NCBI GenBank assembly: GCA_050084985.1
Contig: JBITNC010000001.1
Coordinates: 137,454,001-137,518,000, forward strand
Length of the DNA: 64,000 nt
Direction: 5' to 3'
From: Nageia nagi
Taxonomy: Eukaryota; Plantae; Pinophyta
Position numbers and translations under genes: made by a program. Shown in pieces: positions 658-58,096 of the stretch. The notes under the pieces are model-generated. The model had not been told where the DNA came from. It saw only the letters and a program-made list of their open reading frames with translations, and made no database searches. The first letter of the stretch is position 1. The number at the start of each line of letters is the position of its first letter.

Positions 658-3600
658 ATGGCGACTTCTCAATCATCCTTTGCAACCAAAATAGAGTAAC
701 TTGACATTGACTTACTTTCCTTGCAAGAAGAATATCTCGAGAATGCACCAAGAGTGAACTGCACCGAAATAGGAGTGATCAGTCATATGGATACATGGAG
801 AGCTGACCCTAGCCATGTGCTTTTGAGATTAAAGACTCCTGAAGTCACTGGAAAAGGAAAATCTCTTGCTCATTCTAGGAGAGATGTTATGATTGATCAA
901 GATTTGGCATATTATGTGCCCTATGAGTCTTTCACATGCCCTGAGCTCTTATACTCCCTAACGCACAGGCGTCATCAAAAGGGGTATCAAATAGGCATGT
1001 ACAAGGGCACTGAAGAGGAACAAACTTCAGAACCAATGTTTGAAGCGGTGTTGGACTACTCTCCGGATTCCATTATCCAAGCATTTGCTATTCCAGCAGA
1101 CTGGACATTTCATGTAAAAAAGCAAATTGATTTAAAAAGGGAGAAATTTGATTTTTATATAAATGAAGATGAAATGCTGAACTAGATTAATTGAAGATAC
1201 CAGGATAGCAAGCAATCAAAACTCTTGCCGAGCTATCAAATAGCTCTTTTTCAAAGGAGAAAAGATAGAGAAGTGCTACAAGCACTCGCGGTCATTCTGG
1301 GGAAGAAGACCTAGATAGAAGCAGATGAGGCCATGGTACACATGGCATATAATATTTCAGAATGCCATGTCTGCTATGATTTCCTGGCCTTCATAACCAA
1401 AGAAATTAAGAGATGCTTATTCAAGATAGAGAAGTCAGATTTTAGGCATTCTTCCTATCTCTGATGGCTTTTCATTCATCAAAATTTGGACAAGTTAGTA
1501 GGGACAAGGCTCCCAATTGAGCCAACCAGCTCCAGTGATGCCTTGGTGCCAATTGATTTGATGGTACCAGTTTTGAGTAAGTTGCATGGGTCTTACTATG
1601 AGTTTATGGACAAGTTTTATGCCACCGCAGTAAAAATTGACTGAAAAATTCCCCAGTAGGCTGCGCAAGAGCACAGTAAGAGAGTTACAAGGTGGGAATA
1701 AAATCGGTGACTGGTACTTTTTGAAAGACCGCACCGTGATAATAAGGTATGGATATTTTGATAGAGATGGGTAGGCAAATCTGTGCAATAGAAACTATAT
1801 ACGGGACTGGGGGAAATTTCAAGTCTACTGTAAATATACCGGCATCTACAAAAAATCACTCTGTTAGAGATAGGATGTACAGAAAGCATTACTCAATTCA
1901 TTATACAAAATTTCAAATTAAATAAGCTGGAAACTGCATGGATGTATGACCCATCAGGGGAGATAACCCAGTTAATAAGGACTAGCAAGAAACGTTCGAC
2001 ATTCATACATGACAGTAGGCCCCATATTGAGTATTTTGTAAATAAAACAGAGCAGGAGGCAGAATTATACCTTGATTGGGAATTTGTACCTTTAGATAAA
2101 GCCTAGATGGCTTTGGAAGGAATAAAAAAGTATAGAAACTAGGAGAATAAGAGGTAATATTTTGTCCTCAACCCAGAGGTCCTCACCCAATTAGCATATC
2201 TTGGATGGGGTCCCAATAAAATTCATTATTTCACAAGATTCAGATTTGAATACACCACCAAAATTCACCACATTGAAAGTGAATTATTTGAAAATTTCAA
2301 ATATGACAAATATTGGGAGGTAGAATATTCTAAAGATCCACTACCAGAATTGGGACAGCCCTTCCCTCCTCATTTTCGCGGGAAACCCGCAACAGAGGAG
2401 AGGACAATGCAGAGAAGACAAACAGCTATCATTATTCAAGCTTCAAAGAAAAGGAAACAGGACCCCTCAGATACCACCACTTCTTCCCGAGAACCTTCTC
2501 TTAAGAAGAAAAGAAAGATTCAAACCCTTACTCAAAAAGAGCAAAAACTAGAAAAGGAGCAAAGGCCCATAAAAAAGCCCCGGTCAGCCACAACAAGGTC
2601 ACAGTCACAAGTGATTGTCCCTTCACCTTCAAAGGCATTGGAAGAACTTCCAAGGGTGGTTATGCAAGAAGAAAAAATTCTTGACCCTGAAGAATCTAAC
2701 CAGCCACAAGATACTGAAGCTGGTTGTACAAAACAAGCCCAAGAACAACAGCAAGAGGAAACCCCAGCAGAAGAACAAAGTCAAATTCAGCCAAGCAGGG
2801 AAAGTGTACTTGAGGCCAGAGAAACAGCGGCAGTGGCACCCAGAGGAGGGTCGGGAGATGATGAAGATGATGATGATGAGTTTAATAAAAAGGACTCTAG
2901 CCCAATGGATGACCTTGAAGAAGTAGGTGAGGCAATGGAAGAGGCCGAACCTGAACTAGAGGTCCAGCAATTAACTCCTCCCGGCCACCTCAACCAATTC
3001 AGCAACTTAAGACACCTATTACAGGTGAAATTGTTTCCACTCATTCTTTTATTCCAATTACCTCACAAGAGGAAATAAAATCAATTTTTTCTATACAAAT
3101 TGTAGAGCTCATTGACTACGCAAATTTTGTAAATAAATCTCTTGTGCTGCCTAAGCAATAGTCGAGAATTTTAAGCAAAGTCACAGAGACGGGAGATATT
3201 AAAATTGCTCAGATGCCTTTTAAAGGACATCTGCAGCTGACTCCCACAGCTATAATAAATGTGAGTATGCAGAGTGCACCAACCATTGATCAATCCAAAT
3301 TCCTGGTCAACACTTCAATGGCAGCCGGAAAGAGTCTTCAATCAATAAAGACTAAGATTGAAAAATTGAATAAGAAAGTTGATCAATATAAGGACTGCTC
3401 CCTCAAGGATAAAACAATAACCGGGTTGCAGAACAAGAATAAAGAATTGATTGTAAAGTTGGAGAAGCAAAAAATTGAATTTGATAAGAGCATGGCGACA
3501 TCAAAAGATCAGCTAGACACTGCGAATCAAATAATAGAATAACTTAAAGCTCAGGCTACAGTGGTAGATGCTCAAAAAGTTAAGAAAATTGAGGCCGAAA

Positions 3601-7011: not shown

Positions 7012-8099
7012 TGTAATGTACCTTTCTAGGGTTTATCCAATTTCTTACTTAATTAAGTATTCATTCACAAATTAGGGCATCAAAGTAAATGCTCATTAAC
7101 CATCCAAACATGCACTTAAAACTGAAATATAACAGCAGTAGCCAAATCTGATACAAAGCTCATATAACATGTGAATATCACCAAACTCGGGCATAACTTC
7201 AGATCTGCAACATAACAGAAATATAGCTCCAAAATACTCTAATCCGCATACATTCTCATGCAAAATGAAGATAATAGTATAGCAAAAACAAAGGAGCCTT
7301 CATCCACATTCAAGATGCAATATGAGAGCCAAATGTCATGAATAATCAACCAAGAATAAGTACATGGTTGTAAGAAGCCTATAACAAGTTTTAGGGCAAA
7401 ACCCAAGACTCAGAGATGCTCAACCAAGACTCCCAAAGGTTGATGCAAATCCCAAGGAGGCTCCCAAAGCTAGTGCAAGGCTCAAGATGACTCCCAAGGG
7501 TTGGCGCAAGCTTCCAAGTGGCAAAGATGGATGGCGCAAGTCTCTAGATAGCTCCTCAAGGTTGGCACAACCTTTTCAAGTGAGTATGAGTGTAGAAGAG
7601 CCACTTCTAGGCTAGGAATTAGCCCCAGTCCTTAGAAGGTAAAGAGAAGAGCATCCCCAAACGTTGAATGATCCAAGATCAAATGCACAAGATGATGTCT
7701 TCAAGTGAGCAAATGACTTGCCTTTATAGCATTCCAAACTTGCAAATATGTCCTCAAAAGGAAGCCGACTAGGAGGGGAGAAAATAAAAATTTTAAATGG
7801 CCCCAATCCTCCATAAAATGGCCAACTTGTATGTAGGGGCATAATTCATCTTAATGACCCTATTTATTAGCTCAAATAAATATATAATTTTCCAAGGGCA
7901 TAATTCATCTTAATGACCCTCTTTAGTAGCTCAAATAAATATATAAGTTTCCCTTTTCAAGCGCTTGCCTTTGAGGCACAAATATAAATATGATAAATAC
8001 ATAATTTGACAAATAAAGCACTCCTAATCTAAGTACTAAAGATCACAATGAATAGGCATGAGGGATGGTGTCTAGATATCCCAAATTGGGGACATTACA
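7012..8099 (-). mobile_element. 3' LTR (~1.09 kb) of a minus-strand gypsy element
   Basis: Termini tgtaatgtacc...ggggacattaca; adjacent PPT on the minus strand; similar to the reverse complement of the solo LTR 40070-41144. Confidence 0.85.
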
Positions 8100-9184: not shown

Positions 9185-9780
9185 TCATATAAACCAATTG
9201 TATTCCCTCTCCATGTGGCATGGAATGTTGGGACTGGTTTTTGCCGTCAAAAGCTGCCTTAGGATGTTGCAAAAACTGAGAGCACTGCTGTTGTAACTGT
9301 TATACCTTCTCAAAGAGGTGTTATGGCTGATATGGATAATCTCTAAACTGTTAACAGCTGTCCAAGGATGTGTGGCATGGGTGCCTCTCAAAGTGATCTT
9401 CCTCCCATGCTCAAAGAAACTCATTTCCAATTCTCAGTAATTTAAAGTGACATCTCCCAATTGGTACAATCATTGGACCCCTAGAATGATGTAAGGAGAA
9501 CCACCCATGGGGTAAACATAGAAATCGGCTATGATGATGCCATTTCCAATGGTTACTTCAAGGTCTCTAATCATCCATTTACACCTAGTTTTGTATCCCC
9601 TAGCATTGGTGACTCCAAACTCTTGAGTTTCAATTCTTTTCAAGTTTCTTTTAAGGGAAAAGGCTTTATCAATAAAATTATTGGTGGCACCATTGTCTAC
9701 TAGGGTAATAATGGATTCTCCTATAAGGTGCCCTTCTAGTTAGAGATTGGGGTATTTGATGGGTTTAATCAAAAGTTTAA
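9185..9780 (-). pseudogene. Aspartic protease remnant (second copy) of a non-autonomous gypsy element
   Basis: Translation LEGHLIGESIITLVDNGATNNFID...ADFYVYPMGGSPYIILGVQ*LYQLG...MEMSFFEHGRKITLRG contains the D(S/T)GAT-type and ILG motifs. Confidence 0.85.
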
Positions 9781-11289
9781 TGAGTTCCCGAAGATCCCTT
9801 TTGATTCTGTTGGGGGGTAAATGGTGAACTATTTTCATTTTTAAGAATTGAAGAATGTGAAGGGGAACTAAAATTAAATGGATTCACATATGTACCTTGT
9901 TGGTATGTTTTTCTTTCGTAGTTCAAAACATGCACAAGACTTGGAGGAAACAGTGTTACTTGCTTCCGCCTAAAAGGACTGGTTACCCCAAGCGCTCAGT
10001 AGTCAAAGATGTATGTTGTTAACCGTATAAAAGGGAAATACAACGTCGGAGTTCCCTTCCACAATAAAGAAAGACTACAAATGTGAATGAAAGCGATGAA
10101 AGATCACAAATGCAAGGACAAACACAGGGATAAATACAAAGGAATACAAGGAAAAGGAAATGACTTATGAAAGTATCATCAATGATGTAGTGTCTCGGCA
10201 GGTCGTTTTTAGATTCATTAAGGTCAACGCACTCACTATCAAGCTAGGCAACAAATAGCAAATATGCTCAAATCACTACCAGACGAGAGCAAGGAGTTGT
10301 AGGGTCTTGGTGGAAGACTCGGTGGAAAGGGTATAAGTGAGGTGAGGGCGTGAGTGCAAGAACCTAACCGAATGATATAAAGACAAGTTATAAGCCTCAA
10401 AATATATCCACTTACATGCAAATCATGCAAAGAATGAACTCAAACCTACTCAAATGAATATCCAGTATGCAATTCAAGGAGAGAATCATTCAAATATGCA
10501 TAATCCCATAAATGATATTCTCACAATATTGACTTTGTAATATCATTCCTCAAAGGAAACACATTCATAATGATATTCAACAATAAACATGCATAAAACC
10601 CCTTATGCAACGAACCTCTATGCAATGGAATGTGAATGCTAAAGGATGCAATAGCTCAAAAATTCTTGTACACATAAAAGCTTATAGCCAGCATCTCAAA
10701 ATATAAGAGCCTCAATATGCAATATTTCCATTAAGTGCAAAGTCCCACATGTGCAACAATGTGTAAAATCATGCAATAATTCAAGTGCAAAATTGCAAAT
10801 ATCCTCCAATGCAAATATCCCAAATGCCAAAATCCCCTTCTAAATGGCCCAAATGGGGTATAAATAGGCCACTAGAAGTGTCGCCCTAAAGGTATCGAAT
10901 CTAATGTGGTGTGCACACACACAACACACATACTGATACAAAATCAGATTGTTCACACAAAACTATGCAAGTGGCACCTAAAAGCTAACAAAATATAAAT
11001 GCCACCGTCAAAATGCATCTAATCTACCTCTAATCTATGCAATAGCGAATCAAACATGCAATAAAAGGTCTGAAAAGTCTGACATCTAAACCAGCAGGAG
11101 CAAAACCTCATCCTTGCACCGGTCAAAGCCATGAATGAGTTTGACAGATTTGATCTGGCGGGAGAAAAACCTCATCCCTACACCAATCAAATTGAATGAA
11201 ATAAAGTCTGGCATAATAACCAACATCAAGTATGCATTAAACAAATGAAAAGATACCACAGACAGGATCTATGGGTGGATCAGACCTAG

Positions 11290-14200
11290 GCCAGATCTGA
11301 TCCGATATTGGCGAATCTCCACTCCTCGTTGATGAGACTGTACTACTCAATGGTCTCCTCCAAGAATGCCACAATCTTTCGTACACCCCTAGAAATCATG
11401 CCAACGATGATACCATTCTGTCGAATATAATCCTCTATTTTCTTCGATGTAGCCTAAATCTGGTGTCTCCAGATGACCATCCGCCTCTCATGGACGATGG
11501 GATGCCCCACCTTCGGCAAGCTAAGATCATCAACATCAAGATGTTCCTATATCAGGTTCTGAGCCTCAGCCAATACCGCCTCCTTTCTCACATTGTTGTC
11601 TTCCCCTTGGAACTTAAGCTGATAGACATATTCCCTCATTTGTTGTTCAACCTCCTTTCTCAAGGGGATTTTAATTTTTCAGGGCTCCATTGCACTTTTC
11701 AAGTCCATGGTTCAACCAATCGTGATGATAGGTGAACTCGTGGCAATAAATCAACTTTTCAAGATTTAGCATAAATATGCTGCAGATGGGAGACATTGGG
11801 AAGATGGCTATCTAACGTGCTAAGGTGTGTTGAGATTTTCCCCTTGAGGTCCCTCATTTCAACACCTTTAGCAAGGAGCTTGTAGATTCGATAAGACAAT
11901 TTCTCGATGGCCTATATCACTTCCTTCTTCAGCTGCTCCATCATTTCCCATCCCTCATGGAAGGAAGTCTACCTCTACAAATCTAAGGGGGTGGCGCTAA
12001 CTTTCTGGAACTCCTCGATGATTTTTTTGCTAGCCATGAGTTCTCTTTTCAATCTCTTCACCTCCTTTTTGGCTTCGTAGCCTTCCTGCTCCATGACTAC
12101 AACATTCTGAGTGACTATGTGTTTTTAGGCTATCAATCCTAGTTTCACAAGCATCTTGAATGTCTCAATGATGCAGTGTTCTGCTCTTTGAGGGTGTTTC
12201 TCCTTTGAATAGCAATGGCTGATGGAGATCTCCTTTCGAGAAGTGGAGACAAAAGTATCAACCCTTCGAATTTTCTTGTCATCCAAAAGTTCGTCTTCCT
12301 CATCTTCAGAGCGCAGGTCCTAGTCTATATCTTCATCATGAGCCATGCTCATGCTGAGGGCTCTAAGGCAGGCATCCACATCAAGATCCAGATGCTTAGT
12401 TACTGGCTAAGGAGGAAATCTCTGAACCAGCAATCTTCCTCTGTCAATCTTCTTGACCTCTTTCACTGGAGTGGTCTGAACTACGGTAATCACCTTACTG
12501 CTTTCTCTTCTTTTTCTATTCCTCAGTCTCTCCATCTTCCTCATATCCTCCATTTCCGCCTATAAATATGCCCTTATTCTATGGCTGGGGAGATCTCTCA
12601 TGGCCCGTCCTCTTTGTGGAGGACTTATGCGAAGCGGAGGGGACTTCTTCCTATGCTCAACAAGACACGGTTTGGAGGCGGCAGTCTCTCTAGCACACTT
12701 TTCTCCAACAATTTGGAAATCATCTTCATATGTTCCAACGTCACTATCTCATTGTCATCCGGGAAAGTTTCAATCTCCATCTCATCGGGTGCAGAAGCAC
12801 CTATAGCTACATCCTCTTGCTCAAGGACACTGGTAGCATCATCATCATCTTCTTATTCTTCTTTTCTTCCGCCACTTTCTGATTCTTCTCCAGAATCTTC
12901 CACTGCATGGTCAAGTTCTTCATCAGTCTCTTCATCGGAAGAGGAAGTAGAAGTAGAACACTTAGAACTGGAACTGGAACTTGGTTGCAAAGGGGGAACT
13001 TTCTTTCTGCATCCAAGAGAATGAGTATGTCTGGAAGGGACAACTTCAGTAGGTGAATCACTAGCACAAGCCTCACCCACTACATCATCTAGCACGTCCG
13101 AGGGGAGAGCGTGATAACCAACGTCCTTAAAATCAACTACCACCACGCTACGCTTGCTAGGACCCGGGATCAATTCCCTCGGAGCCTCTTGCCTCTTCCC
13201 AACAAGGAGTAAGGGCTTCTTGCCACGTAGAGATGCAGTACAAGCAAAAGAATGTGACATCTTGATCCTGAGAGGGACCTCCTTTGATTTGGACTTTGTG
13301 GTTCAGGATTTCTGAGGTGGTTTTTCTGTTTGAAGTGGAGCCTTTTTCTTTCTCAGAAGAGCATCTATTCGTGCAATCTCCTCCTTATCCTGCACGTTCC
13401 TATACCTCTCCACATTTCCTAAAGACTTATGCGCAAATGCAATAGGTTTGTGGAATGCAGTATCATAGAAATGTGCAATTACACCCTTAGGATCATAGTT
13501 TCTCGTAGCCACCTCCTTGGAAAAGGCACACTACTGTAGCTCCTTCATGTGGGTTGATTTCACCCATGTCTGACATACATATTTCGATATTGAGATAGGC
13601 AAATTAATGGTCCATTCTTCTTCTTCCAGACTTTCTCCTTTAAGAACAAAAGTTGCCTAGCAAACTCCATGAGGATTAGTTTGTCACTAATGTATCTTGG
13701 TAGGAGTAGGGGTCATTCCTCTGAGCCATAGACTCTGATGTATGTATAGTCAGCGTTTTGCAAAAAGAAATCCGCATGTACACTGATAGTTCGGATAGCC
13801 ACATCAGAAATCCTCTTTACTACGGACTCCCCTTTGATATCTTTGTAGAAATCATACTCCCAATGATCAATTCTCTCACAAAAATATTGGAACTTGTTCT
13901 GGTACCACCACTTTGGATAAGCTCGCCACACAGGAATGCTCATTTGCCCCGGATATCTTTCGTCAACCAATTCCTGGATCTAATCTTGCCATGCAGCAAC
14001 AAGTATACAAGCTAAGAGTTCATATAGAATCTCTTTGAGGAGCCAAAATAGGCTAACTGGTGGCATAGGGCATCATTGATTACCCCAACCCATCGGATAG
14101 CCTTCCCCAAACTAATAACTACAATGAAGCCTGTGAACTCCCTCCTATACCTGGTGTCGTTCTCCTGACCAGTGACCCTTGACAAGAGAATGATCAGCTT

Positions 14201-14798
14201 GGCCACAACAAGTAGGAACTCCTCTCTACATGCGCTGATCAACCTTTGACCTTGAAGATTCTGGTAAACTTCCAACAACCAGAGCCAAATATAGTCCCCA
14301 TGTCAGGCTGTGGAATCATAGAATTCTTCAGAATATGCCAATGTGTAATCGTCCCCATATCTTCTCCAGCCAATGGTTGCTTCAATTCTAGCAGGGGAGA
14401 AATTCGTGATTATGTTTCCCTCTATGTCCTGTAGGACTTTTGTCATATTCACACTTTCTGGCTACCTCATGGAACAAGTCAGGAAAAGGTACTGCAAGAG
14501 GCATCATAGCGGCATTGAACAAGCCACATGTGTGGATGAGCTCTTCTGATAAGTACTCCTGATGGAGGCTGTGGAGGCTAATGTTTGGATAGGGTCTAAG
14601 TTTCCCAAATCTGTAACACCAACAAAGATGTGTCTCCTCTTGAATTTGGCTTCAGGGAGCCCTGGTCTCTCTCTCTCTTGAAATTCAATCAAGCTTTCTT
14701 TTGAAAGCCGGGTCATCTAGATTTTGGTTACATCTCTCAAATAGCTTGCCTTGAATCTTCTTGGACCTTAATGGAGGTAGTCTGATACTGGAAGCCAT
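11290..14798 (-). pseudogene. Degenerate ~1100-1170 aa accessory ORF inside the giant LTR
   Basis: Collinear fragments 14504-14716, 14012-14278, 13713-13970, 13303-13512, 12853-13260 continue into an acidic and coiled-coil part down to ~11290; strong peptide similarity to 31478-34297 (e.g. FTGFI.VIS.G.AIRW...DALCHQLAYFGSSKRFYMNS). Confidence 0.85.
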
Positions 14799-15047
14799 GC
14801 AAGAATGTCTGAATACCCCAAGAAATCCCTAAAGACAAATTTGGACATTGTGAAAGATGCAACAAAGCAGAATCAAACATGCAAATTTGTGTTGTAGGAT
14901 GTCTAGCACATCGAATGATAGTTGCTTCCCCCTTTTATATGAGATGCATGGAGGGTGAATGCATGGCAGGGTACATGCTTGCCACTTGTCTTCTTCTCCT
15001 CTTCACTCCTGGCTTCTCACACTTGACCAATTTCACCTTGCAATTAT

Positions 15048-16428
15048 GGGCGCAGTTTTGGATGAGTGCTTGAGCACAGCTTGAAAAGCATGCGACTAGG
15101 CCTAGAGTCACTTGTCAAATTTCAGGGCATAATTCTTCACCTCAATTGTGGGCGCATGGATCTAGATGAGTGCTTAAGCATAGTTTGAAAAGCATGCGAC
15201 TAGAATTAGGGACTACATTGAAATGCCTTAACTCAAAACAAAGCTAACTGGATGCACATCCCCTAAAACACCTTATTTCTCCCTGGCGCACTGTTTTAGA
15301 TGAGTGCAAAAAGCATGCATTAGGAATGGTTCGACTGGGGGAAAGGATGGCAAATCTGAAATGAAGTGATTAAAATGACTAAGGGGTGCGGTGATATTTA
15401 TAACATTATGAACTGCCATGTGTCACCTCTGGGTTGGTCAAACTAGGGGTCAAATGACGAAGCAAAATCAAGGGCGCATGGTTTTAAAGGAGTGCAAAAG
15501 CATGTGATGAAAAGCATGTGGCTATGCTTTTAAATACCTAGCCAAATTCCAAGTTGACACCAAAGCTTAATTCCTGGTCGCACCGTTTTGAAAAGGTGCT
15601 AAACCATGCACCTTAATCCTTGCGCCTGGCATGCTTCCCAAGACTAGAAATTCAAAAATGTCAAAAAATGCAAGTTTGATATAGGTCGCATGTTTTGGAG
15701 AGGGTGCTTTCTCTCCCTTAGTCCCACGCAATGCTCCAGAAAAATTTGCAAACTGAAATACTAAAGCTAACTTCCCTTTTATAGCCTTCCGGATAGGACA
15801 AGTGTCGCCATATGATAGGTGCAGGAGAGGGTCCAATGCATGAGTCTCCACTTGTCAACAAATTGGACCCAACACTTAGCCAATTTTCACTTCATGAATC
15901 TAGTCACACGGTTTGAGCAAGGTGCAAAAGCACTCACTGGAAAGCATGCGACCAGCCTTGGTTGTTCGAAAAAATGGCTAAGTCCTTTTCTTCCTAGTCG
16001 CATGGATAGAGTAGGGTGCAAAAGGACTCATTCGAAAACATGCGAAAGGCTTTCATGGCCTTAAAAATGACTATGTATGAGACTTCCTCCTTGGTCGCAC
16101 CCTTTGGGGTGAGTGCAAAAGCACTCACTTGAAAACATGTGACAGGTTTTCCACACAAGAAAAATGCTACATATCATTTTGGTTGAGTGCAAAAGCACTC
16201 ACTTGAAAATAGGCGACAAGCTGAAAACATGGTTTTTCTTTGCATTTTGACCAAAATGACACCAGATATGAAATGCAATGAGGGAGAGACGAGTTTCTGC
16301 AACATGAAGGACCTCCAAAAGTACAATTCTAAGACAAAAGATGCAAGTAATAAGGATGAAAATGCAGCAAGGGGCTGGTCGCACAGTTTGAGTTGGGTGC
16401 AAAAGCACTCACTCAAAAACATGTGACT
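15048..16428. repeat. Array of ~11 imperfect ~53-bp palindromes (GGTCGCA...TGC-AAAA-GCA...TGCGACC) with non-identical spacers
   Basis: Units at ~15048, 15150, 15284, 15471, 15575, 15683, 15901, 15995, 16092, 16175 (partial), 16376; the 16092 unit has the perfect inner stem gtgagtgc-aaaa-gcactcac. Confidence 0.85.
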
Positions 16429-16859
16429 GAGGGAAAATGTGCAATTCTAACCTGGCTTGACCATGAAGGAGCAATTTAAACATGTTTCCTAAAGCTAGAC
16501 CAAAACATATGCATTTCCTTTGACAAATTACTTCCATGCATTTCCTTTTTTTATTTCGAGGGTCCTCAAAATGCAAATTTTTTTTTTTTTTTTGGGGGGG
16601 GTGGGGGGGTTGTGCAGGCACAACATAGCTTCTTCTTGGATGCCCCTTGGTGTTAGAGTCCACCTTTGTTCCAATGGCCTCGTTCTATCCTCTTGTGGTC
16701 TCATGCTTGAGGCGACCTCTTCTTTGGTACTTAATGTGGTTGCCTCCAATCTCTTAATGGAAATTTTGGTTCTTATCCTCCTTGATTCCTTGAAATGTGA
16801 TTTCACAGCCTCCACTATTGAACTTGAATTGCAAGGTTGTGTGGTTGGTGGTGTAGTCT

Positions 16860-17245
16860 CCTAAGGATGCCAACCATTATACCCCTAAGATGACATGAGG
16901 TGAATCACCCAATCAAAAGATGAAGAAATCATCTTCAATAGTGTAGTCTTTCAAACTAAACTTCATATTAGGCACCTACTTCCTACAAGGTGTGATGTTT
17001 CCATTTCCAACTATCACATCAAAACCCAAAAATGGTTCGATCTTCATCTTCTTGGCGGTGGCTAGCTTCTCATAAACAAAGTTGTGGGTAGCACCCCCAT
17101 ATATCAAAACTAAAACCTTCTCTCCCAAAACTTCTCCTGAAACTTTGATAGTGAAGTATTGATTCATACCAATCAAAGTAGCTAATGTTACTCCTCTTGA
17201 TGTTGTTCGTGTAGTAGACTTTGGATTGGATCTTTGGATGTTCAT
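16860..17245 (-). pseudogene. Aspartic protease remnant (first copy) of the non-autonomous gypsy element
   Basis: TIKVSGEVLGEKVLVLIYGGATHNFV...DDFFIF*LGDSPHVILGV*WLASLG; the catalytic D is replaced by Y. Confidence 0.85.
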
Positions 17246-17314
17246 GGTTCTATATGATGGCTCATCCTCATCATATTCATCAATATCTTCATGTTCCTCA
17301 TTTGATGACTCTTC

Positions 17315-18060
17315 TTATGAAAAAACCTCAATGTAATGTATGGCTCCCTTGCCAAGGCAACAGTGACTCGATGTCCAAGGTTGTTTGCAACTAAAGCATA
17401 AATTTTTCCTTCTTAGTTCATTTCTTTCATTCCTCTCTTCCTTGGTTCTTCTTGTATATGTGATGGCAAGAGCAAGCGTGGGTTTCCCACTTGATGAATC
17501 TCTTCTTGGTGGTGACATGTCCTTCTTGAATGGTGCTCTCATGCTAGGTCTATGGTATGGTGTCACTTGCTTGGTCTTGGGAAGAGTAGAGTCTTCAAGA
17601 GTAAGAGCCCTCTTGATTACATCTTGTAGAGTAGGTGGGTCAAAGGCTTTGACCAAACCCTTCAATGGTTTCTTTAAGTCCCTCCATAAAGACGAAAGCT
17701 ATCCTCCTATCTGACACATCCGAAACCATAACTAAAACTCTTTGAAATTCTTCAACATAAGTGCCCACAGTTGTAGTTTGTTGAAGTGTGGCCATCTCTC
17801 TAAAGTATTCTTCCTCATATTTCCTTTCAAACCTGTCAAGAACCCTTTTGCAAAATTCTTCAAAGTCCCCAATCTTGTCATGACCCAATGTGGTGAAGCC
17901 ATTGTGCCACCACTCATATGCTATGCCATCAAGGTAAAGGGAGACAAATTTGATTGCATCCATTTCTTTCATAGGGCAAAGAGTGAAGTAAGTTTGAAGC
18001 TTTTGTATCCAAGCCATGGTGTTTTCCCTATTTCACCATTGATAAATGGGAACATTAGAT
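17315..18060 (-). pseudogene. gag: Ty3/gypsy (chromovirus-type) gag with zinc-knuckle remnant
   Basis: AWIQKLQTYF...AYEWW...LQQTTTVGTYVEEF...FMEGLK (Retrotrans_gag-like) and ELRRKNLCFSCKQPWTSSHCC; frameshifted. Confidence 0.9.
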
Positions 18061-20151: not shown

Positions 20152-22705
20152 TTTTTTGTAAGTAAAAAAAAAATATGTATTAATTTATTGGAATATCAAA
20201 GTACATCTCCTGCCTTTTCAGGCATAAAGTATTTTGAGCCATGTTTTAACAGTGGATGTGGGAATATGCTCCCTCGCATCAAAACTACTACAACATAATA
20301 AGCATAAAAGAAGCCATGCAAAGCAATAACAACTGGATCTACATGCAGCAAGTATTACTGTCATCAAAGGAGAAAATTGAAAAGAGAGTTCCGCTGATCC
20401 ACTAAGACTACCATCTAGGAGGATGTCCATAACAAGTGAAGTCACCTTTGTTGAAAGCCCAGTTAGCCATTGCATCTACCACCCTATTCTCTTGTCAAGG
20501 AATGTGCATAAATTCAACTGAGTTGAATCTCTGCTGAGTCAGCTGATTTTTTTCCACCACTCTTCCTTCTCTCTAATCTATATTCTTCTGATTGTGTTTC
20601 CCTAACAAGTGATTTATCAGGGACTCTGATCCAGATGAATTTTTCTCTAGCCCAGTTTCATGGCTTCATGTAATCCACTCAAAATAGCATAACCCTCTGC
20701 CAAGTTATTAGTTAGAGTACCTACATACTCTGAAAAGAGAAAAAGAGAACCATTCGAGAGTCGGCCTATTCCCCCATACTCGCTTTCCCTGGATTCCCCA
20801 TTGAAGCTCCATCTGTATTTATCTTTCCAATTCCTCCTAGGGGGGTCTCCATTTCCCAGTTCTGTTAATTCTGTGGCCATTTGTGGTTGTCCTTTGTGGT
20901 GTAGCCAGCATTAGGGTAACTTGAAGTCAGGATAATATCTCTATCCACTTTTGGCTAGGGTTCTAGGGGTGATTCAACAGATGTTGGATTGTTTCTATTA
21001 TGTTGGCTATTGCCAAACATAGTAGTTGTCCCTATGCTCTTGGTTAAAAATTCTGTTATTCCTTTCCTTCCATAGATTCCACACAAGGAAAGTCGTACCC
21101 GTTCAAATTAATTGTCTAGTATATTGATCACCTTGTTCCTACTTAACCCATTCCATCCATGGGTGCTCAATGAATGAGATTCTAGACCATTGAATACCTA
21201 GTATGGCTGCCAAGTTCTTACACAATTTAATTGTGATAGAACATTCTACAAAGAGGTGGCAAATTGTTTCCTCATACTTCCAACACATTGCACACCTAAA
21301 AGGCCCATGGATCCCTTTTTTCATATGTTGTTTACCTATTAGCACTCTTCTGTGAAGTAGAAGCCATATAAACAAATGCACTTTAGGCCATAGCTTTTGT
21401 GCCCATAGCTGCTTGAAAAAATCTTTTAGTGGGCTGGGGTTGCTTTGTCAAAGAGACGAGTATCTAGAGGACACTATATACTTTACTTCTTTCTCCCCCA
21501 TCCAATGGAGTCCTCCTCCTGAGACATGAAAGGGATCTCATCTAGAGTATCATATACATTTCTTCCCTCTATACCTCTGAGGTTTGAACTGGTCATTTCA
21601 CTACTGGAATCTGTTGTCTTTCTACCTCCCAAATCTTAGTTTGAGGTTTGTAGAAGTTTGCTACCTTTACCCAATTGGTATTCAAGAGATTCTCCATAAC
21701 TAACCCACAAATTAGTTCAGAAGTTTGCCTTCTATCCATTGTGGATCACCCAGAATCGTCATTTCTTTATCATTTCCTCCCCTGTTCTTAGTACCACTAG
21801 GATACGGGATCCTCTGTTGGGTAGTGGATAACAAATGAGCTCTACCGGGGTTTTATTTTCAGCATATCTCACCCTAAGATTCTTTGCCCATAATGCCTCA
21901 AACGAATTCAACAGTCTTTAGTATAATTTAGCAGCCAATGCCTTGTTCTTTTTGGTTGCTGAGCAGAATCCTAAACCTCCCTCCTTTTTGTGAATTCATA
22001 AGCAATCCCATTTTAATAGTGCATTCATCCTTCGCTCCATTCCAAAGAAATCTATGGCTAATTTGATCTAATTCTTTTAAGATCACCTTTGGAATGTCAG
22101 GAGATATAAATGGGAATTGCCAAGAGAACTGCTTTGACCAAAGTCATCCTCCCTCCTATGGAAAACCATCTATTCATTCATTTTCCTAATTTGGCTTTTA
22201 CTTTTTCTGTCAGCCAAGCCTATTCCTCCTCCTTTTGCCTTCCTTCTTTTAGAGGCATGCCAAGATAGGTGATTGGAAGAGAGGCTTTCTTATATCTCAA
22301 TTTCTCTCAAACTATAGTTAGAAAAATCGGAATCAGATCAGAATCGTTTGGTTGCAGGATTCTGGTTTTTTGAAAAATTGGACAAAATCAGCAAAAAAAA
22401 ATGAAGGAATTTCTTCGGTTTTAGCTAAATCTCAAAATATCTCAAAAAATCGGATAAAATCGGCCAAAAAAGGGGATAAAATCGGCAAAAAATCATTGAC
22501 CGATTCAATGCTGATTTTTTAGCGAAAAATCACGATTTTTTGCTAGTAAAATCGAAATCGGAAAAAATCAGATAAACACTTATTTAAAAAAAATCAGATC
22601 CGATTCGAATCAGATCGTTTGCTTGAACCGATTCCGATTTTATCCGATTCCGATCCGATTTTTCCAACTATGTCTCAAACCATTGTCTTTTGCCTAGGAG
22701 AACTC
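20152..22705 (-). mobile_element. 5'-truncated L1-clade LINE (RT C-terminus, zf-RVT, RNase H, A-rich tail)
   Basis: SLPITYLGMPL...IGGRMTLVKAVL...RFLWNG; HLFIWLLLHRRVL..FRCAMC...ETICHLFVEC; TNNLAEGYAILSGL; FMHIP*QENRVVDAMAN; minus-strand AATAAA and A-run ending near 20152. Confidence 0.9.
22313..22672. mobile_element. hAT-type MITE inserted in the LINE
   Basis: TIRs (c/t)atagttRgaaaaatcgg / ccgatttttccaactatg; perfect 8-bp TSD tctcaaac (22305-22312, 22673-22680); subterminal aatcgg repeats. Confidence 0.92.
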
Positions 22706-25499: not shown

Positions 25500-27190
25500 G
25501 TGAATATGTAAATTTTGCAGGATTGAAAACAAATTCAAAATTCTTATCTTAGAGTTGCTGAAATATGATGCTGACCATGTGGCATTTCCAAGTCAGCAAA
25601 ACGAATTTGTCCCTCATTTTGTAACTGTAGAATATTTCAATTTGTAACTAAAGGAATATTTCAGCTTGTAACATTTGTAGATTATTATTCTTCATGTAAT
25701 AGGTTAGATTCTTCAGTTTCTTAGTCTTAGATAGAGTAATATCTATTGTATTGTATTTGTACAAGTTATCAGAGAGTGTAAACACGAATTCAAGAAGAAG
25801 AAAATCCATTTTCCCAGTCTGATGTGTTTTCTAGCATTGTGCAGTCCAGATTTTACAAAATTTTGAACAGCCTACTTTGGAAATTAATATCTTTTTCAAT
25901 GTTACTCCATTTACTGAACGTAATATACCATTGGAAAGGTATTACCAAACACTTTCCGTCCATGTGACACATGCCCTATTTTGTTTATGTTAAGCACTTC
26001 ATTTTCACCTCTGAAAATTGTATTTTAGTCTATTCTGCCCAAAACCTCAACGTGCAGTAAAGTTTACTTGGGTACACATTATTGAGCAGAATTTACTTTG
26101 AAATTTTCATGAGATTCATATTTGTTTTGATCCTCTGTTTCATTGTTTGTAAGTGCGCTGAAGTAACCTCAGTAAACTTCATTTGGTATCAAAGCTTTGT
26201 TCGGTTAGAGGGTTTGAGTCACCTATGTGGCTTTTTGTAACAATTTATCAAGTTGTTTTTTAAAAAAATTTACAAGTTCATTGTTGTTAGTGCATAATGG
26301 CCAACAACAATGACTCATTGTCAACCCTAAGTTTGATGGAACTGATTATGAATATTGGAGCATTAAGATGAAGACTTTGTTGATGGGTAAAGGTATTTGG
26401 GATGTTATAGAAGATAGTTACATAGAACCAACAGATTGGAGCATTATTGTTGCAGCAGATCGAACAACATGGAAGAAAGCTTAGAAAAGGAATTGCTTGG
26501 CACTTTATCATGTTCAATCAGCCTTGGATAAAAGTATTTTTCAAAGAATAGAAGGTTTTAAAATAGTTACTAATGCATGGAAGGCCTTGCAAGATAGTTA
26601 CCAAGGGAGTGACCAAGTCAAGCAAGTGAAGTTGCAAACTCTAAGAAGAGAGTTTGAAAATTTGATAATGAGAGAGGTTGAAAGTGTTGGTAATTATTGT
26701 GTAAGGGTAAAGGTTGTTGCCAATAAATTGGCAACTCTTGGAGAAAAACTCGAAAAAGTGGTTGTTGTCAGGAAAATGTTGACAACACTCACTCCCAAGT
26801 GGAACTATGTAGCCATTATTATTCAAGAGAGTAAGGATTTATCTACTCTTCAATTTGATCACCTGATAGGATTCCTTATATCTCATGAAGAGAAGCTGAG
26901 AGAAACTATTAGTGTTGTTGAGGAGAAAGCATTTTCTTCTAAGACTGATGAAGCAAGTTCTAGTAGGAAAGAAAAAGGATATGGCCAAGGAAGAGGTCAA
27001 AATTCTTCTAGAGAAAGAGGAGGTAGAAGAGGTGGTGCAGCAAGTAGAAGGAGAGGCAGAGTTGATAAGAGGAATGTGCAATGTTACCATTGCAATAAGT
27101 ATAGATATTATGAGAGATAATGCAGATTGAAGGCTAGAAATGATGGAAAGATAGCCAACTATGGTGAAGAAGAGACTACTGAAAAAAAAG
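25500..27190 (+). mobile_element. Truncated Ty1/copia element: 5' LTR remnant, PBS, gag
   Basis: LTR ends ...aaacttca at 26181; PBS tggtatcaaagc (Met-i type) at 26184-26195; left boundary approximate. Confidence 0.8.
26297..27180 (+). pseudogene. gag: Copia gag (DUF4219/UBN2-like, CCHC knuckle)
   Basis: PKFDGTDYEYWSIKMKTLLMGKGIWDVIE...KLQTLRREFENLIMRE...VQCYHCNKYRYYER*C; contains a frameshift and stops. Confidence 0.9.
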
Positions 27191-29485: not shown

Positions 29486-29825
29486 GTGTGATTCAAATTT
29501 TGCGGAGCCTCATAAAATCAAACATAAATGCATGAGAGAAATTTTGTCCAAGGGAATGCATGCATCATATTCCACTTAGAGGAAACATGTTAAAATTTGC
29601 ATGTTCATGAGTCATTATGGTCAATAAATTGCATTTTTCATTAGGCACATGCCCCCTAAAACGTTCACCCTCCTTCATGCTGCATTTTCAGCGTTCAAAC
29701 TTGCATTTTTGGTCCTTCAATTGCATTTTCAGGTCCCCTCATGCTGCAAATTTCATTCCCCTTCATTTGCATTTGCATTCAAAGTAATTTTGGTCAAGTT
29801 ATCAAAGAAAAATCGTGTTTTTCCC

Positions 29826-31030
29826 CAGTCACATGTTTTGAGGGACATGCTTTTTGCATGTCCCCAAAATGGTGCGACCAAGGTTGTGAACTTTCATACT
29901 TAGAAAATTTTTGCAAAAACATAGAAAAGGCCCAGTCACATGTTTTGAGGAACATGCTTTTGCATGTCCCCTAAATGGTGCGACCAAGGAGGTGGATGTC
30001 CAATACTTAGAATATTTTGAAGTCATTCAACTTGCAAGGAAGAAAGCTAGTCGCATGTTTTGAGGGACATGCTTTTGCATGTCCCCTAAATGGTGCGCCC
30101 AACTTTGAGCAATAAAATTTTGCTAAGTGTTGATCCCGTACGTTGACAAGTGTGGCTACATGCATTTGACCCCCTCTTGCACCAATCATAAGATGACACC
30201 TGTCCCATCTGAGAAGGCTATAAAAAGGAGGTCAGCCTCAATTAGTCTATTTGGAAGGTTAAGTCCAAAGCACTGTGTCCCCTAAAACGTGTGCCCTGTT
30301 CCAAATTGCATTTTTCACGTCATTTTCATTATTTTTTGGAATTTCCTACCTTGGGAGGTGTGCCACAAGCTAGTCGCACCATTTTTAGTACATGCTTGGG
30401 CATTCCCCCAAATCCATGCGCCCAATCCCAGACGTCCTGGCCCAAGGGTAAAATTGACTAAGTGTTGGAATTCAAGAAGAGAGGGCCAAGCGCATACTTT
30501 AAGGTGCATGCTTTTGCACCCATTCCAAAGGGTGCGACTATGAAATAGAGCTTCAAAGTGTTATTCTTGGGCGCACACATTCTAGTACATGCTTTTCCAC
30601 ACCTTCTAAACCATGCACCCTTCACTCCACTCCATCATTTCACCTCAATTTTGACCAACCAGAGGGTGACACGTGGCAACCTAGAAGACTATAAATATTA
30701 AGCCACCCCTTAGTCATTTTCATTACTGCATCTGAACCCTAGTCGCACCATTTCAAGGACATGTTTGAGCACTCATCCAAATTGATGCACCATGGAGGAA
30801 TAAGGAGTTAGGGTTTTGTTTGTGCATCCAGTTAGCCATTTTTGGCTAAGTCATTTCATTTGAGACCTAGAAACTCTGGCGCATGCTTTGCAGTACATGC
30901 TTTTCCACTCACCCAAATCCATGCACCCAGGTGTGAAGTGATGTATTGTGCTCTAAAATTTGACTGACCCACGATCCAATTGCATGCTTCCCAGGTAGTG
31001 AAAAAGCACTCACCTCAAACCGCGTGCCCT
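29826..31030. repeat. Array of ~9 imperfect ~53-bp palindromes in the second giant LTR
   Basis: Units at ~29826, 29934, 30048, 30371, 30488, 30568, 30740, 30876, 30978; inner stem gggacatgc-tttt-gcatgtccc; outer agtcRca...tgcgacc. Confidence 0.85.
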
Positions 31031-31395
31031 GGGTTTACAAGTTGAAATTGACTAAGTGTGAGACAGTAGGAGTTGAGAAGAGAAAGAGACAAGTGGCAAA
31101 CATGCATCCTACCATGCATACACCCTCCATGCATCCCCTATCAAAGAGGGCAACCTTGATTCATTTGTGTTGGACGTCTTGCAGCCCAAACCTGCACATT
31201 TACCCCCTTTTTGTTGCGCCCTCTAAGACATCCAATTCGGTACTAGTCGATTTCTAAGGCATTTCCAACCATTTTCAGTCCTTTTCCTACACATTTTTCA
31301 GAATTCAAAGCTGACTTCAAAAGTGAGGCCGTCCCCACTCAAGGCCAAGAAAGTTCAAGGGCAGTTGTTTGAAAGACATGTGACTAAGAACCAGA

Positions 31396-34297
31396 TGACA
31401 AGGCTCTTGAAAGAGAGCCAGATAGGTCCTCCATCAGCAAGGAGGACCTATCAGATGAGCTCATCCACTCATGTGGATTGTTCAATGCCACCATGATGCC
31501 TTTTTCAGTTCCATTTCCTGAATCGTGTTACGAGGTAGCCAAGAGATGTAAATACAACAAGAGAGTCCTCTTGGACACAAAGGGGAATGTGATTATGGAC
31601 TTCTTCCCCAAAGGAATTGAAGCAGCCTTTGGTTGGAAGAGATATAGAGATGACTACACATTGGCAAATTCAAAGGAGTTTCATGATTCCACTGCCCGAC
31701 CTGGGGACTACATTAGAACGTGGCTTTGTGAAGATTAATAGAATATTTAGGGCCAAAGATTGGTTAGCACCCGTAGGGAGGAATTCCTCCCTACAATGGC
31801 CAAGTTGATCACTTTGTTGTCCAGAGTCGCGGGTAAGGAAAATGACCCTAAGTATAGAAAGGAGTTCACAGGGTTCATTGCAGTAATCAGCTCGGGGAGA
31901 GCTATCAGATGGAGTAAGGTGATTTGTGATGCCCTATGCCACCAGTTGGCTTACTTTGGCTCCTCGAAGAGATTTTATATGAACTCCTATCTTGTGTACC
32001 TGTTGTTCCATGGCAAACTCAAATTCAGATGAAAGGTATTTGGGTCAAAAAGGCATTCCTGAGTGGCGGGTTTACCCAAAGTGGTGGTATCACAACAAGT
32101 TTCAGCATTTCTATGAAAAGAATGATAAGTGGGAGTACTCCATCTATAAAAACATCAAGGGGGAATCAGTCGTGAAGAGGATTTCTGATGCTGCCATTCA
32201 GGCCATCACTGCACATGTAGATTTCTATTTGCAGTATGTTGATCACACATTCATCAGAGTCTATGGCTCAGAAGAGCAACCCCTACTCCTGCCTAGATAT
32301 GCCAATGACAAGCTCATTCTCATGGAGTTTGCTAGACAGTTGTTGTTTCTAAAAGAATGAGTATGGAGAAAGAAGAATGCAACTATCAACTTGCCCATCT
32401 ACATCGCAAGTTATGTTTGCCAGAAGTGAGTTAAGGCTAGCAACATGAAGAAGCTGCAACAGTAAGTCTTCTTTAAGGAGATGGCAGTTACAAATTATGA
32501 TCCTAGAGGTGTGATTACTCATTTCTATAGCACTGCATTCCAATAGCCAATCACTTTTCAGCATAAATATTTAGGGAATGTGGAGAAGTATCGAAATGTG
32601 CAAAATGAGGAGGAAATTGCAAGGATAGATGCTCTTTTGAGCAAAAAAAAGATGACACCCTTCACGCAGAAAAACCACCTCAAAGACCATGCACTGTGAA
32701 AGATAGATCTAAAGAGGTCCCACTCAGGATCAAGTCGTCCCCTCCTGCCAGTGTTGTGCCTCCACAAGATAGAATGCCCTTGCTTCTTGCTGGGAAAAGA
32801 CAAGAAGCTGCAAGGGAGCACATCTCAAGACCTAGCAAACACAACGTGCTAATGGCCGATTTGAGAGATGTTGGTTATTGCACTGTCCCCTTGAGAATGT
32901 TGGAGGAAGCTTGTGTCAATGATTCACCCACTGAAGACATTCCTTCCAAACCCACTCGTCCTCCTAGATGTAGGGAGAAGGTTCCCCCACTACAACCAAG
33001 TTCTAGTTCTTCCGAGCATTCTACTTCTTCTTCCGATGCAGAGATTGATGAGGAACTCGATCGTACAATAGAAGGCTCCAAGGAAGAGTCAAAGAGCCAA
33101 AGAACTAATGAAGAAAGTCGTGGTGAAGGAGAAGGAGAAGAAGAAGATGATGATGATGATGATGATGATGATTATGCTGATGAGCAGTACCCCGAACAAG
33201 ATGATATAGTTGTAGGTGCTTCTACACCTGATGAGATGGAGATTGAAACTCTCCCAGATGATAATGAGATTGTGGACATTGAGACCTATGATGATGAGGT
33301 CCGAATTGTCGGAGTAAAGTGTCCCAGAGAGGTGGGTGCCTCCAAGCCCTCTCCTGCTGATCACCAAAAGAGGTCACCCTCGTCTTCCCAGAAGCCCTCT
33401 ATGAAGAGGACCAGCCATGAGAAATCCCCTCAACCACGAAAGAAAGGCATATGCATTGGTGGTAATGGAGGAGATGAAGAAGACGAGGGGGAGACCAAGA
33501 AGTAGAAAAAGAAGAAAAAACAAGAGGAGCATTAGGGCAAGGAAGTTGCCCTTGTTCAATCTACTCTAGCCAAAGAGGTCAAGAAAGTTAGCAAAGGCAG
33601 ATTGTTGGTGTAGAGGCTTCCTCCCTAGCCAGCAACCGAACATTCAGACGTTGAGCTGGATGGTTGCTTTAGAGCCCTCAACATGAGTACGGCTCACTAT
33701 GAAGAGATAGACCAAAACCTGCACTCTAAAGATGAAGAAGAGGAGCTTTCCGATGGTGAGAAGATTAGAAAATTTGATAAATTTGTTTCCATCTCCCGAA
33801 AGGAAATTTCCATTAGTCATTGCTATTACAAGGAAAAGCATCCTCAAAAGGCAAAAGACTATTTGATAGAGACGTTTAAGATGCCTGTGAAGTTGGGACT
33901 AACAGCACGCAAGCACATAGTTACCCAAAATGTTACAGTCATGGAATAGAAGGGCTATGAAGCCAAAAGGGAGGTGAAGAGACTGAAGAAGGAACTCACG
34001 ACCAGTAGAAAAATCATCAAAGAGTTACAAAATATCAATACCACCCCTCTTGATCTGAAGAAGCAAGCCTCATTCTATGAAGGATGGGAGTTGATGAAGA
34101 AGCAACTGAAGAAGGAGATGATGGAGACCATTGAGAAGTTGTCTTCTCAAATTTATAGCCTCCTCGAGGAAGGTGTTGAAATTCAAGATCTCAAAGCCCA
34201 AATCACAGCACACTTCGAGAAGTTTGACAGCTACCTTCCTAACGCCACCCACATGCAGCAAATTTTTGTTAACAGGCCTCAAAAACTGTTCTACTAG
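31396..34297 (+). pseudogene. Degenerate accessory ORF of the second giant LTR (C-terminus lies in the inverted block at ~35070-35420)
   Basis: ORF fragments 31478-31738, 31760-32032, 31992-32360, 32696-33505 (with (GAT)n poly-D), 33683-33949 and 33974-34297 are collinear with 14798-11760. Confidence 0.85.
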
Positions 34298-36410
34298 GAA
34301 GCTGTAGGGTCTTGGTGGGAGACTCGATGGAAAAAGGGTAAATGAAGTGAGGGCGTGAGTACAAAGACCTAACCGAATGGCATAGAGACAAGCTATACAC
34401 CCCAGAATACATTCACTTACGTGCAAACCATGCAATGAATAGCTTACTCGCTTTAACAAATATTCAATATGGAACATCAAGAGGAAAACTATTCAAACTA
34501 GAGCAACATGCATGATCCCACAAATGATAATCTTCACCGTATTAACTTTGCAAAACCATTCCAGAAAGAAATGAACTCAAAATGATATTCTATAGCATGA
34601 ACAAAAGATTTCTTTTCTTGATTGCAATGATCTCAATATGATATTCAAAGTGAAATAGAGATATGACAACGTACATCCATGATATGCAAAGAATCCCTTA
34701 TGCAACGAATCTTTATGCAATTCAACAGTATGGAGAAAATCTTGTACATGTAATCATATACAAAAATCCTGCAGAAAATCCCCTTCTAAATGTCCTTGAT
34801 GGGGTATACATAAGCCATCAGAAGTGTTGCCCTAAAGGCATCAAATCCAATATGGTGTGCACACACGCAACACACATACCGATACAAAATCAAATTGTTC
34901 ATATAAAATGATGCAAGTGGCACTTAAAAGTTGACAAAATATAAATGCCACTACCAAAATGCCTTTAATCTACCTCTAAACTATGCAAAAGCAAATCAAA
35001 TATGCAGTAAAAGTCTGACATCTAAACCGGCAAGAGCAAAACCTCATCCCTACACCGGTCAGAATCATACGGTTTTCCATACACCCCTGGAGATCATGCC
35101 AACAATGCTATCGTTCTACCGAAAATAGTCCCCAATTTGCCTGGATGTAGTCTGCATCTAGTATCTCCAGATGACCATCTATCTCTCATGGATGATGGGA
35201 TGTCCTACCTTTAGCAAGCTGAGGTCATCAACATCTAGATGCTCCTGGATCAAATTTTGGGCCTTTGCCAATACTGCCTCCTTTCTCCTCACGCTATTAT
35301 CCTCCCCCTGGAACCTGAGCTGGTAGATATATTTGCTCCTCGACTTCCTTCCTTAAGGGGATTTTGAGTTTCAAAACTGTATTGCACTTCTCAAGTGCAT
35401 GCTTTAGCCAGCCGTGATGGTAACTAGTAGTGATTTGAGCACATATTGCTATTTGTTGCCTGGCTTGATAGTGAGTACACCTACCTTTATGAATCCGAAG
35501 ATGACCTGCCGAGACATTGCATCACTGGTGATATTTTCATAAGTTCATCTTTCTTTATATTCCTATGCACTTATCCCTGCATTTGTGATCTTTCTTCACT
35601 TTCGTTCACAATTGCAATCTTTTCTCATTGTGGAAAAGAATCCCAAAGGTGTGTATTTCTCTTGTATACGGTTAACAACATGCATCTCTGACTATTGTGC
35701 CCTACATCATATTCCATGTGAACGCTTGGTGTAACCAATCCTTTTAGGCGAAAACAAGTAACGATGTTTCCTCCAAGTCTTGTGCATGTTTTGGGCGAGG
35801 AAAGAAAAACATACCAACAAGTTCATTCTAATTTTAAAATAAGTGTGGAGTGATAAGCATTAACTTACGAGCATGATTAGGGCATATTTGAGTTATTTGG
35901 AATTTATGGAAAAGTAAGGAATTAATTCAGTAATTATTTGAGCTATTCCTAGTTGGGAATATTACAAATTGATGATCAAGGTTTAAGTATTCAAGAACTA
36001 TTTTTAGCAGTAAATTTATTTTCTACACAAGTTAGCTCTTACTTATTATACTTAAATATTTATTTATATATTATAACAGGGTCATTAACTATGTTAATAT
36101 TATTATAAATATAGAACATATAGTTTGTATTATTAGATTCATCCCTAAGTAATTGACTATTCCAGGGCCACATCATATCATATATTCTATACAAAACAAA
36201 CCACTTCCTTTGATGATTGTTGGTTACCTATATTCACATGTGACGCAAAGAGCAGCATATGCATAACAGGTCAGCATTGGGCAAATAGAATTTTGTTATC
36301 AGAGATATAAGTACAAATTACAATGACATTCTTGGTTGGCCTCAAAGACTTGGGCTCACTAATCCACATCTACACTTTCCATATGCATTCTACTTGCTAA
36401 ATGAATAAGA

Positions 36411-57940: not shown

Positions 57941-58096
57941 CTGCAAAGTAGAGTGAACAATTATTAGCATCTTTCACGGCTTGAACCTTTAATCATTCAT
58001 TGTTCCTTTCAGATCTCTTAATAATGTACAAAGAGTTTTATAACTTTAACAATCTTAATAACAAATACTGTACATACATAAATATAAAGTGCTTAC

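Follow-up and report, generated by a model that had tools for sequence, protein, structure and literature searches.

A decayed accessory gene inside a 6.7-kb TG..CA insertion of Nageia nagi, probably the solo long terminal repeat of a giant Ty3/gypsy retrotransposon

The window analysed here is a stretch of 64,000 nucleotides from the conifer Nageia nagi (NCBI GenBank assembly GCA_050084985.1, contig JBITNC010000001.1, positions 137,454,001 to 137,518,000 of the forward strand), and all coordinates below refer to it. Between 9898 and 16625 it holds a mobile unit with TG..CA ends (copy 1) that contains a broken accessory open reading frame (ORF), a non-coding end block, TATA-like boxes and an array of a 52-base motif. 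A diverged second copy (copy 2) lies further along the window, and three members of the same family (L006, L013 and L014) were found in metagenome data. The features are as follows.

9893..9897, plus strand: left target-site duplication, TACCT, read from the window sequence and the empty-site joint
9898..16625, minus strand (the probable sense, that of the ORF): TG..CA unit of 6,728 bases, likely a solo long terminal repeat (LTR)
9898..11285, minus strand: non-coding end block, putatively the R/U5 side, aligned with L006, L013 and L014 and sharply bounded in contig depth
10859..10866, plus strand: conserved TATAAATA box, candidate main LTR promoter, antisense to the ORF, from the multi-copy alignment
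11286..14798, minus strand: decayed accessory ORF, 3,513 nucleotides, about 1,170 codons
11780..12140 (approximate), minus strand: heptad repeat, predicted coiled coil, from the translation and the heptad score on a copy-2 piece
12450..13300 (approximate), minus strand: acidic Ser/Pro-rich linker and Lys/Arg-rich patch, from the translation and copy-2 composition
13611..14771, minus strand: N-terminal domain, possibly like PMD (plant mobile domain) or Transposase_32, a weak lead from matches of profile A2, Atlas look-alikes and a sub-threshold Pfam PMD match
14932..14939, minus strand: TATA-like box, with the ATG about 140 bases downstream of it, recurring in L006
15402 and 15783, minus strand: two further TATA-like boxes facing the ORF, both recurring in copy 2
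15045..16427, both orientations: dispersed array of the 52-base motif, nine copies on one strand plus inverted copies
16626..16630, plus strand: right target-site duplication, TAGCT, read from the window sequence and the empty-site joint
17000..18032, minus strand: host element upstream of the insertion, comprising Ty3/gypsy gag (PF03732) and the first of its protease-like motifs
29486..35819, plus strand: copy 2, in opposite orientation, with a far end that may be a few bases off
about 34297..35422, no strand assigned: inversion private to copy 2, cutting the 3' end of the ORF; L006, L013 and L014 keep the copy-1 arrangement where they reach

The unit begins with TGTTG at 9898 and ends with CAACA at 16625, and the flanking TACCT and TAGCT differ by one mismatch. 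Six listed public sequencing runs, air metagenomes among them, each contained 5-13% of the sampled words, and contigs from five were used. For the empty-site test, contigs of four public runs were aligned to 9500-17000 at 80% likeness. Contigs from three of the four runs link 9895 directly to 16629 (three, two and two joint contigs per run; none in run X3), skipping 6,733 bases, that is, the 6,728 of the unit plus 5. As these contigs stem from further copies of the host repeat that lack the insertion, 9898-16625 is a precise insertion of integrase type into an older gypsy element. The ends, the flanks and this joint together bear out the TG..CA unit with a 5-base target-site duplication that had been proposed in the initial annotation. 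The right terminus itself is left unread by the run contigs, which skip the homopolymer stretch at 16567-16613. The flanks belong to a minus-strand Ty3/gypsy element with gag at 17643-18032 (PF03732, E 4.8e-12) and protease-like motifs; the latter stand in tandem after gag, at 17095 and 9691 (minus), and would be about 670 bases apart without the insertion.

The inverted terminal repeat of the unit is only 5 bases long, and comparison of the left with the right end yielded a single 15-base match and no terminal direct repeat. Motif scans of the unit saw no reverse transcriptase, RNase H, integrase or gag motif, Pfam gave nothing above cut-off in ORF pieces (three from copy 2 and three from L006), and neither a primer site nor an internal polypurine tract followed by TG and common to the copies was found within the unit. 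The earlier statement that gag, reverse transcriptase, integrase and terminal direct repeats are lacking is thus upheld by motif scans, Pfam and the end comparison. Large retrotransposon derivatives (LARD), miniature retrotransposons with terminal repeats (TRIM) and terminal-repeat retrotransposons with gag (TR-GAG) were rejected as identities because two terminal direct repeats are required and the unit has none. A DNA transposon with terminal inverted repeats and a DDE enzyme was likewise rejected, given the 5-base inverted repeat and the lack of any integrase family or motif; Ginger-like transposons of this class have long terminal inverted repeats and a DDE transposase/integrase.

The left end recurs widely. 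Summed contig depth at 9898 leaps in all four runs (13.6 to 1041, 20 to 243, 52 to 349 and 2 to 28), and the letters beyond 9898 are mixed in every run, with an agreement of 0.46-0.65 at 9898 on a short reference laid over the left end. Position 9898 marks the edge of an abundant family with unrelated flanks, the depth being no copy number. Contig depth is also higher over the left 1.3 kb than over the rest of the unit, a difference that was left unused since contig depth cannot rank parts. An 18-base end pattern matched 20 metagenome loci, three of which are family members; L006, L013 and L014 stop at the terminus seen in copy 1, each with a different flank, and L006 spans the left block, the entire ORF and the promoter. 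The remaining pattern matches were unrelated (17 of 20 in metagenomes, all 24 in prokaryote genomes and the only one in viral contigs), and a protein scan of viral contigs returned no relatives in 91 stretches. Bases 1-80 of L006 are an inverted fragment of the accessory ORF, from another copy or from a misjoin.

Copy 2 shares the TG end with copy 1 and is 69-84% identical to it in blocks; a copy carrying the same layout is about 72% identical. The diverged second copy of the initial annotation is therefore real and inverted, although with an internal inversion, a foreign element at its far end and no clean target-site duplication. With its inversion goes the loss of about 250 bases at and near the ORF stop. 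The foreign element is a 350-base miniature inverted-repeat transposable element (MITE) with short terminal inverted repeats, present at 22314-22672, where it has an 8-base duplication, and again at 29141-29485, at the far end of copy 2. Duplications of 8 bases are typical of hAT elements.

The ORF starts at 14798 and stops at 11288-11286, a stop that L006 shares. In copy 1 the frame is interrupted by about 15 premature stops and no fewer than eight frameshifts, and the ORFs of copy 2 and L006 are also broken, mostly at other places; both window copies are now dead. Pairwise ratios of nonsynonymous to synonymous substitution (dN/dS) among the three copies were nevertheless 0.16, 0.14 and 0.15 over 885, 1,080 and 907 codons (bootstrap 0.10-0.20), compared with 0.74-0.79 and 0.97-1.23 in the shifted frames. 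These estimates follow Nei-Gojobori in the frame with fewest stops, excluding gap and stop codons and, at each of two ruler slips, the 25 surrounding codons, and are approximate since dS of 1.25-1.78 is near saturation. By region, the N- and C-terminal parts gave 0.04-0.18 and the linker 0.27-0.34. With dN/dS near 0.15 and far higher ratios in the shifted frames, the codon pattern marks the ORF as a genuine former gene under purifying selection, functional in the lineages that yielded these copies. The dN/dS check that had been suggested among copies thus returned a value of about 0.15, not one near 1, and the decayed ORF of 1,100 or more residues with a globular domain, acidic linker and coiled coil was confirmed at about 1,170 codons (14798-11286).

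Identification of the product was less direct. An alignment search found 38 relatives among 3,901 candidates, all fragments of 88-405 residues and none informatively named. By features, in the ESM Atlas, one protein (P0007) lies near Transposase_32 and ATHILA clusters at 0.79-0.81, and P0021, a homologue that is 37% identical to copy 2, reaches 0.85-0.89 to clusters including DUF1985 and PMD. By structure, the nearest plant clusters of P0021 hold PMD (14% of members; template modelling score, TM, 0.56) and Transposase_32 (TM 0.53). All Atlas look-alikes are from Streptophyta. These leads agree with each other and point to domains typical of the extra ORFs of Ogre and Athila elements, and the N-terminal domain may resemble the PMD/Transposase_32 proteins encoded there. 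PMD and Athila ORF-1 are given as typical extra-ORF domains of Ogre and Athila in an excerpt of PMC6317226, and extra-ORF proteins of the Athila/Transposase_32 type are described in part of PMC11728184. No Pfam match to Transposase_32 (PF20167) or ATHILA (PF03078) was obtained in the ORF pieces or homologues, so that the likeness is one of structure and features. AlphaFold models were poor (mean predicted local distance difference test score 37.6 and 47.4), so that fold searches of PDB and of viral structures, which returned nothing, are uninformative, and a sequence search of PDB matched nothing.

The non-coding parts flank the ORF on both sides. The end block measures about 1.4 kb, and its terminal 100 bases, which three further copies match at 89-90% identity, are the best conserved stretch. 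The TATAAATA box within it is identical in copy 1, L006, L013 and L014, that is, in four of the five long copies, and altered in copy 2; on the ORF strand it reads TATTTATA, a TATA variant. On the other side, the core of the 52-base motif occurs at 7.2 per kb in the array and 5.3 per kb in copy 2, against 0.18 per kb in 36000-64000 (about 40-fold). A 15-base repeat flanking the ORF (11047 and 14870) was judged a chance match and is not evident in copy 2, and a run of G near 16590-16609 was not accepted as a polypurine tract, since copy 2 has no such run. Array, TATA boxes, ORF and end block keep a constant order among copies whose dS exceeds 1. The same layout in copies near synonymous saturation indicates inheritance through many replication rounds and not a one-off deletion.

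From this anatomy, the unit is probably a solo LTR left by a giant Ty3/gypsy retrotransposon of Tat/Athila type, which would have carried an accessory gene inside its LTR. Reverse transcription needs terminal redundancy; as the unit has none, it would most simply be the repeat itself. Duplications of 5 bases, as found here, prevail in Ogre and Athila lineages according to the portion of PMC6317226 available. That the gene lies in U3, in sense orientation, has about an even chance of being right. A possible history would begin with an LTR that grew over a 3' sense extra ORF together with its array and promoter, for example through use of an upstream polypurine tract. The layout of array, TATA boxes, ORF and end block was copied over many replication rounds, and each transposition would have written the gene twice. 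An integrase-type event placed the unit within the older gypsy element, and recombination between its LTRs would have left the repeat alone, each solo keeping one copy of the gene. The protein could be a nuclear, PMD-like regulator that bound the 52-base array in its own LTR and prevented silencing of the promoter, a tentative idea favoured by analogy with host PMD proteins, which oppose Polycomb. Such proteins associate with DNA motifs and counter Polycomb silencing, according to an excerpt of 10.1101/2024.09.27.615353, and part of PMC5418596 describes a shared ancestry of host and gypsy-encoded PMDs. It is unlikely that the unit went further and acted as a self-contained LTR module of array, promoter and a large PMD-like anti-silencing protein binding that array, whose mostly unpaired copies would have seeded a giant plant genome with stand-alone regulator cassettes that sustain gag-pol relatives in trans, or would even have moved without ever flanking gag-pol.

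A number of results weigh against a giant LTR with a PMD-like gene in its U3. Neither a primer site (TGG within 5 bases) nor a G-rich purine tract was seen outside the conserved end in any of the five long copies, the flank test covering that end only and the opposite end lying beyond the reach of every outside copy. Among the loose contig ends listed there was no shared flank, which assembly may have collapsed into short pieces. No paired copy was seen, both window copies are without an adjacent internal region, and a clean target-site duplication is not readable at copy 2. Solos are usually the minority in conifers (one per 4 to 7.5 complete elements, in the part of PMC5751070 drawn on). The best conserved TATA box points away from the ORF, which would imply a gene antisense in R/U5. 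On the protein side, Pfam PMD (PF10536) matched none of 8 and one of 31 homologues, and that sole match (E 0.023) scored 14.3 bits against a gathering cut-off of 34.9, and the Atlas matches score too low for the tool itself to name a family. An intact full-length product was absent among 282 candidates of 533-1,698 residues, in a word-based search that leaves room for intact copies elsewhere. Of the Pfam families suggested at the outset as a check on the ORF (PMD, Transposase_28 and SMC-like), none exceeded its cut-off, and PMD gave the one match below it. A self-contained cassette of array, promoter and gene stands as an inherited layout in diverged copies, and as a layout only, as no intact ORF was among those candidates. 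The gene-bearing mobile unit stands in its integrase-type ends and its selected gene; the placement of that gene in U3 is less certain, as the opposing TATAAATA box is kept in most of the long copies.

In view of the direction of this best-conserved box, either polarity of the LTR is conceivable, and the gene would lie in U3 in the one case and antisense in R/U5 in the other. Within the solo-LTR reading, an opposite polarity is unlikely: U3 would be the left 1 kb, the box at 10859 the main promoter, and the gene would lie antisense in a 5.7-kb R/U5. The box reads as a canonical TATA on the plus strand and is preserved in nearly all long copies, and extra ORFs are mostly antisense in Ogre (60%) and Retand (86%), in the figures available from PMC6317226. 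Such an arrangement would, however, require a strong-stop cDNA of several kb, the box can also be taken, on the ORF strand, for a variant TATA, and the variable, array-bearing side is the more U3-like. Alternatively, and quite unlikely, the unit is a derivative of an ordinary Tat/Athila element in which the true LTR is approximately the left 1.3 kb, and the ORF and array are a 3' internal region caught between a full LTR and an LTR stub. An extra ORF with a tandem array beside the 3' LTR is a known layout of the Tat lineage (PMC7264820, and in part PMC6317226), conservation is far higher over the left 100 bases than at the right end (about 60-73% between copies 1 and 2, in bins of 200 bases), and a G run lies just inside the right end of copy 1. 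Yet copy 2 is without that G run, the right end matches no part of the left block, and neither copy 1 nor L006 has a polypurine tract followed by TG between the ORF and the left block. Moreover, a layout found in copies with dS above 1 demands inheritance, which is impossible by reverse transcription for a derivative with one LTR.

Improbable, too, is a stand-alone TG..CA element that never pairs around gag-pol and was moved whole, at the DNA level or as a circular intermediate, by an integrase acting in trans. The missing primer site and polypurine tract at the conserved end of all long copies, the mixed flanks in short contigs, the occurrence of two unpaired copies inside 64 kb and the usual rarity of conifer solos (PMC5751070, excerpt) would fit such an element. 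The terminal inverted repeat of only 5 bases and the lack of any DDE or reverse transcriptase motif do not, and collapsed contig flanks could conceal a primer-site junction. A 2,970-base contig of run X6 (depth 11.8) continues past the left end, and may represent either an internal region that is shared or a copy in an organelle. An excess of solos also has a precedent in Retrosat2 of rice, whose LTRs exceed 3.2 kb and whose solos outnumber complete elements by 2.6 to one (part of PMC3485330), while no link of solo frequency to LTR length was found in spruce (part of PMC5751070). The solo LTR with a gene of its own is thus the reading that we prefer.

The remainder of the window contains further repeats. 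Paired repeats and tandem blocks that have degenerated, with identities of 66-76%, lie at 7014-7735 and 40461-41142, 45199-45936 and 48183-48891, 55753-56461, and 42839-43781. A Copia-type gag is found at 26485-27117 (PF14223, E 2.9e-22), with a second copy, 64% identical, at 62906-63441. Three open frames, each between 200 and 306 codons long, match no Pfam family; they occupy 2158-3078 (plus), 58038-58832 (minus) and 43700-44305 (plus).

Long LTRs and extra ORFs are each already known, and an ORF inside a plant LTR would likely be unusual. Phrase searches of the open literature returned no paper describing a plant ORF inside an LTR, although the element collection of PMC6317226 may contain such elements; the single match of one of these searches, PMC1560396, was set aside as concerning, in the part available, a host gene inside an element. 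Extra ORFs are placed in the internal region (PMC7264820; PMC6317226, in part), and what they do in plant retrotransposons is still open (PMC7264820). An ORF embedded in the LTR, with TATA boxes of its own and a neighbouring motif array, would be a compact system for asking whether such proteins bind arrays and protect promoters. If the preferred reading is true, solo-LTR recombination would discard gag-pol and yet retain the gene, which would alter the view of solo LTRs, and tools that seek extra ORFs only between LTRs would overlook such elements.

Outside plants, the closest parallel in arrangement is sag of mouse mammary tumour virus (MMTV), a protein gene that overlaps U3 and hence is present at both ends (PMC9147501, excerpt). 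MMTV is a vertebrate retrovirus, and no sequence relationship is expected. The lentiviral nef gene also lies within the LTR, and both sag and nef are much shorter than the present ORF. Among plant elements, Retrosat2 resembles the family in its long LTRs, its excess of solos over complete copies and an extra ORF under purifying selection, but the position of its ORF0 is internal, upstream of gag-pol (PMC3485330, in part). The retrotransposon-borne Athila ORF-1/Transposase_32 (PF03078, PF20167) and PMD (PF10536) proteins compare with the predicted fold of a homologue at TM 0.53-0.56, whereas the present protein, of about 1,170 residues, is much longer, has an acidic linker and a coiled coil, and reaches no Pfam cut-off.

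The gymnosperm TatII and TatIII elements are also similar, being 8-18 kb long with extra ORFs (in sense in TatII, 5' in 23% and 3' in 26%; antisense in TatIII, 18%) and 5-base duplications in common occurrence (PMC6317226, excerpt). Two LTRs of 6.7 kb plus gag-pol would, however, probably exceed 18 kb, and that excerpt is silent on ORFs inside LTRs. Ogre elements (Tat lineage, Ty3/gypsy) share 5-base duplications, tandem arrays and extra ORFs with a plant mobile domain or an SMC-like coiled coil (PMC6317226, excerpt), and their LTRs span 1.9-6.5 kb (part of PMC6431247). They differ in that, so far as those sources extend, the extra ORFs are internal, 5' or 3' of gag-pol, while the ORF described here lies inside the TG..CA unit; Ogre is moreover an angiosperm clade, and no linked gag-pol was recovered by which reverse transcriptase, RNase H and integrase could place the present family. 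Compared with the 6.5 kb of Ogre, an LTR of 6.7 kb would stand at the upper limit reported for plants, with more than half of its length coding.

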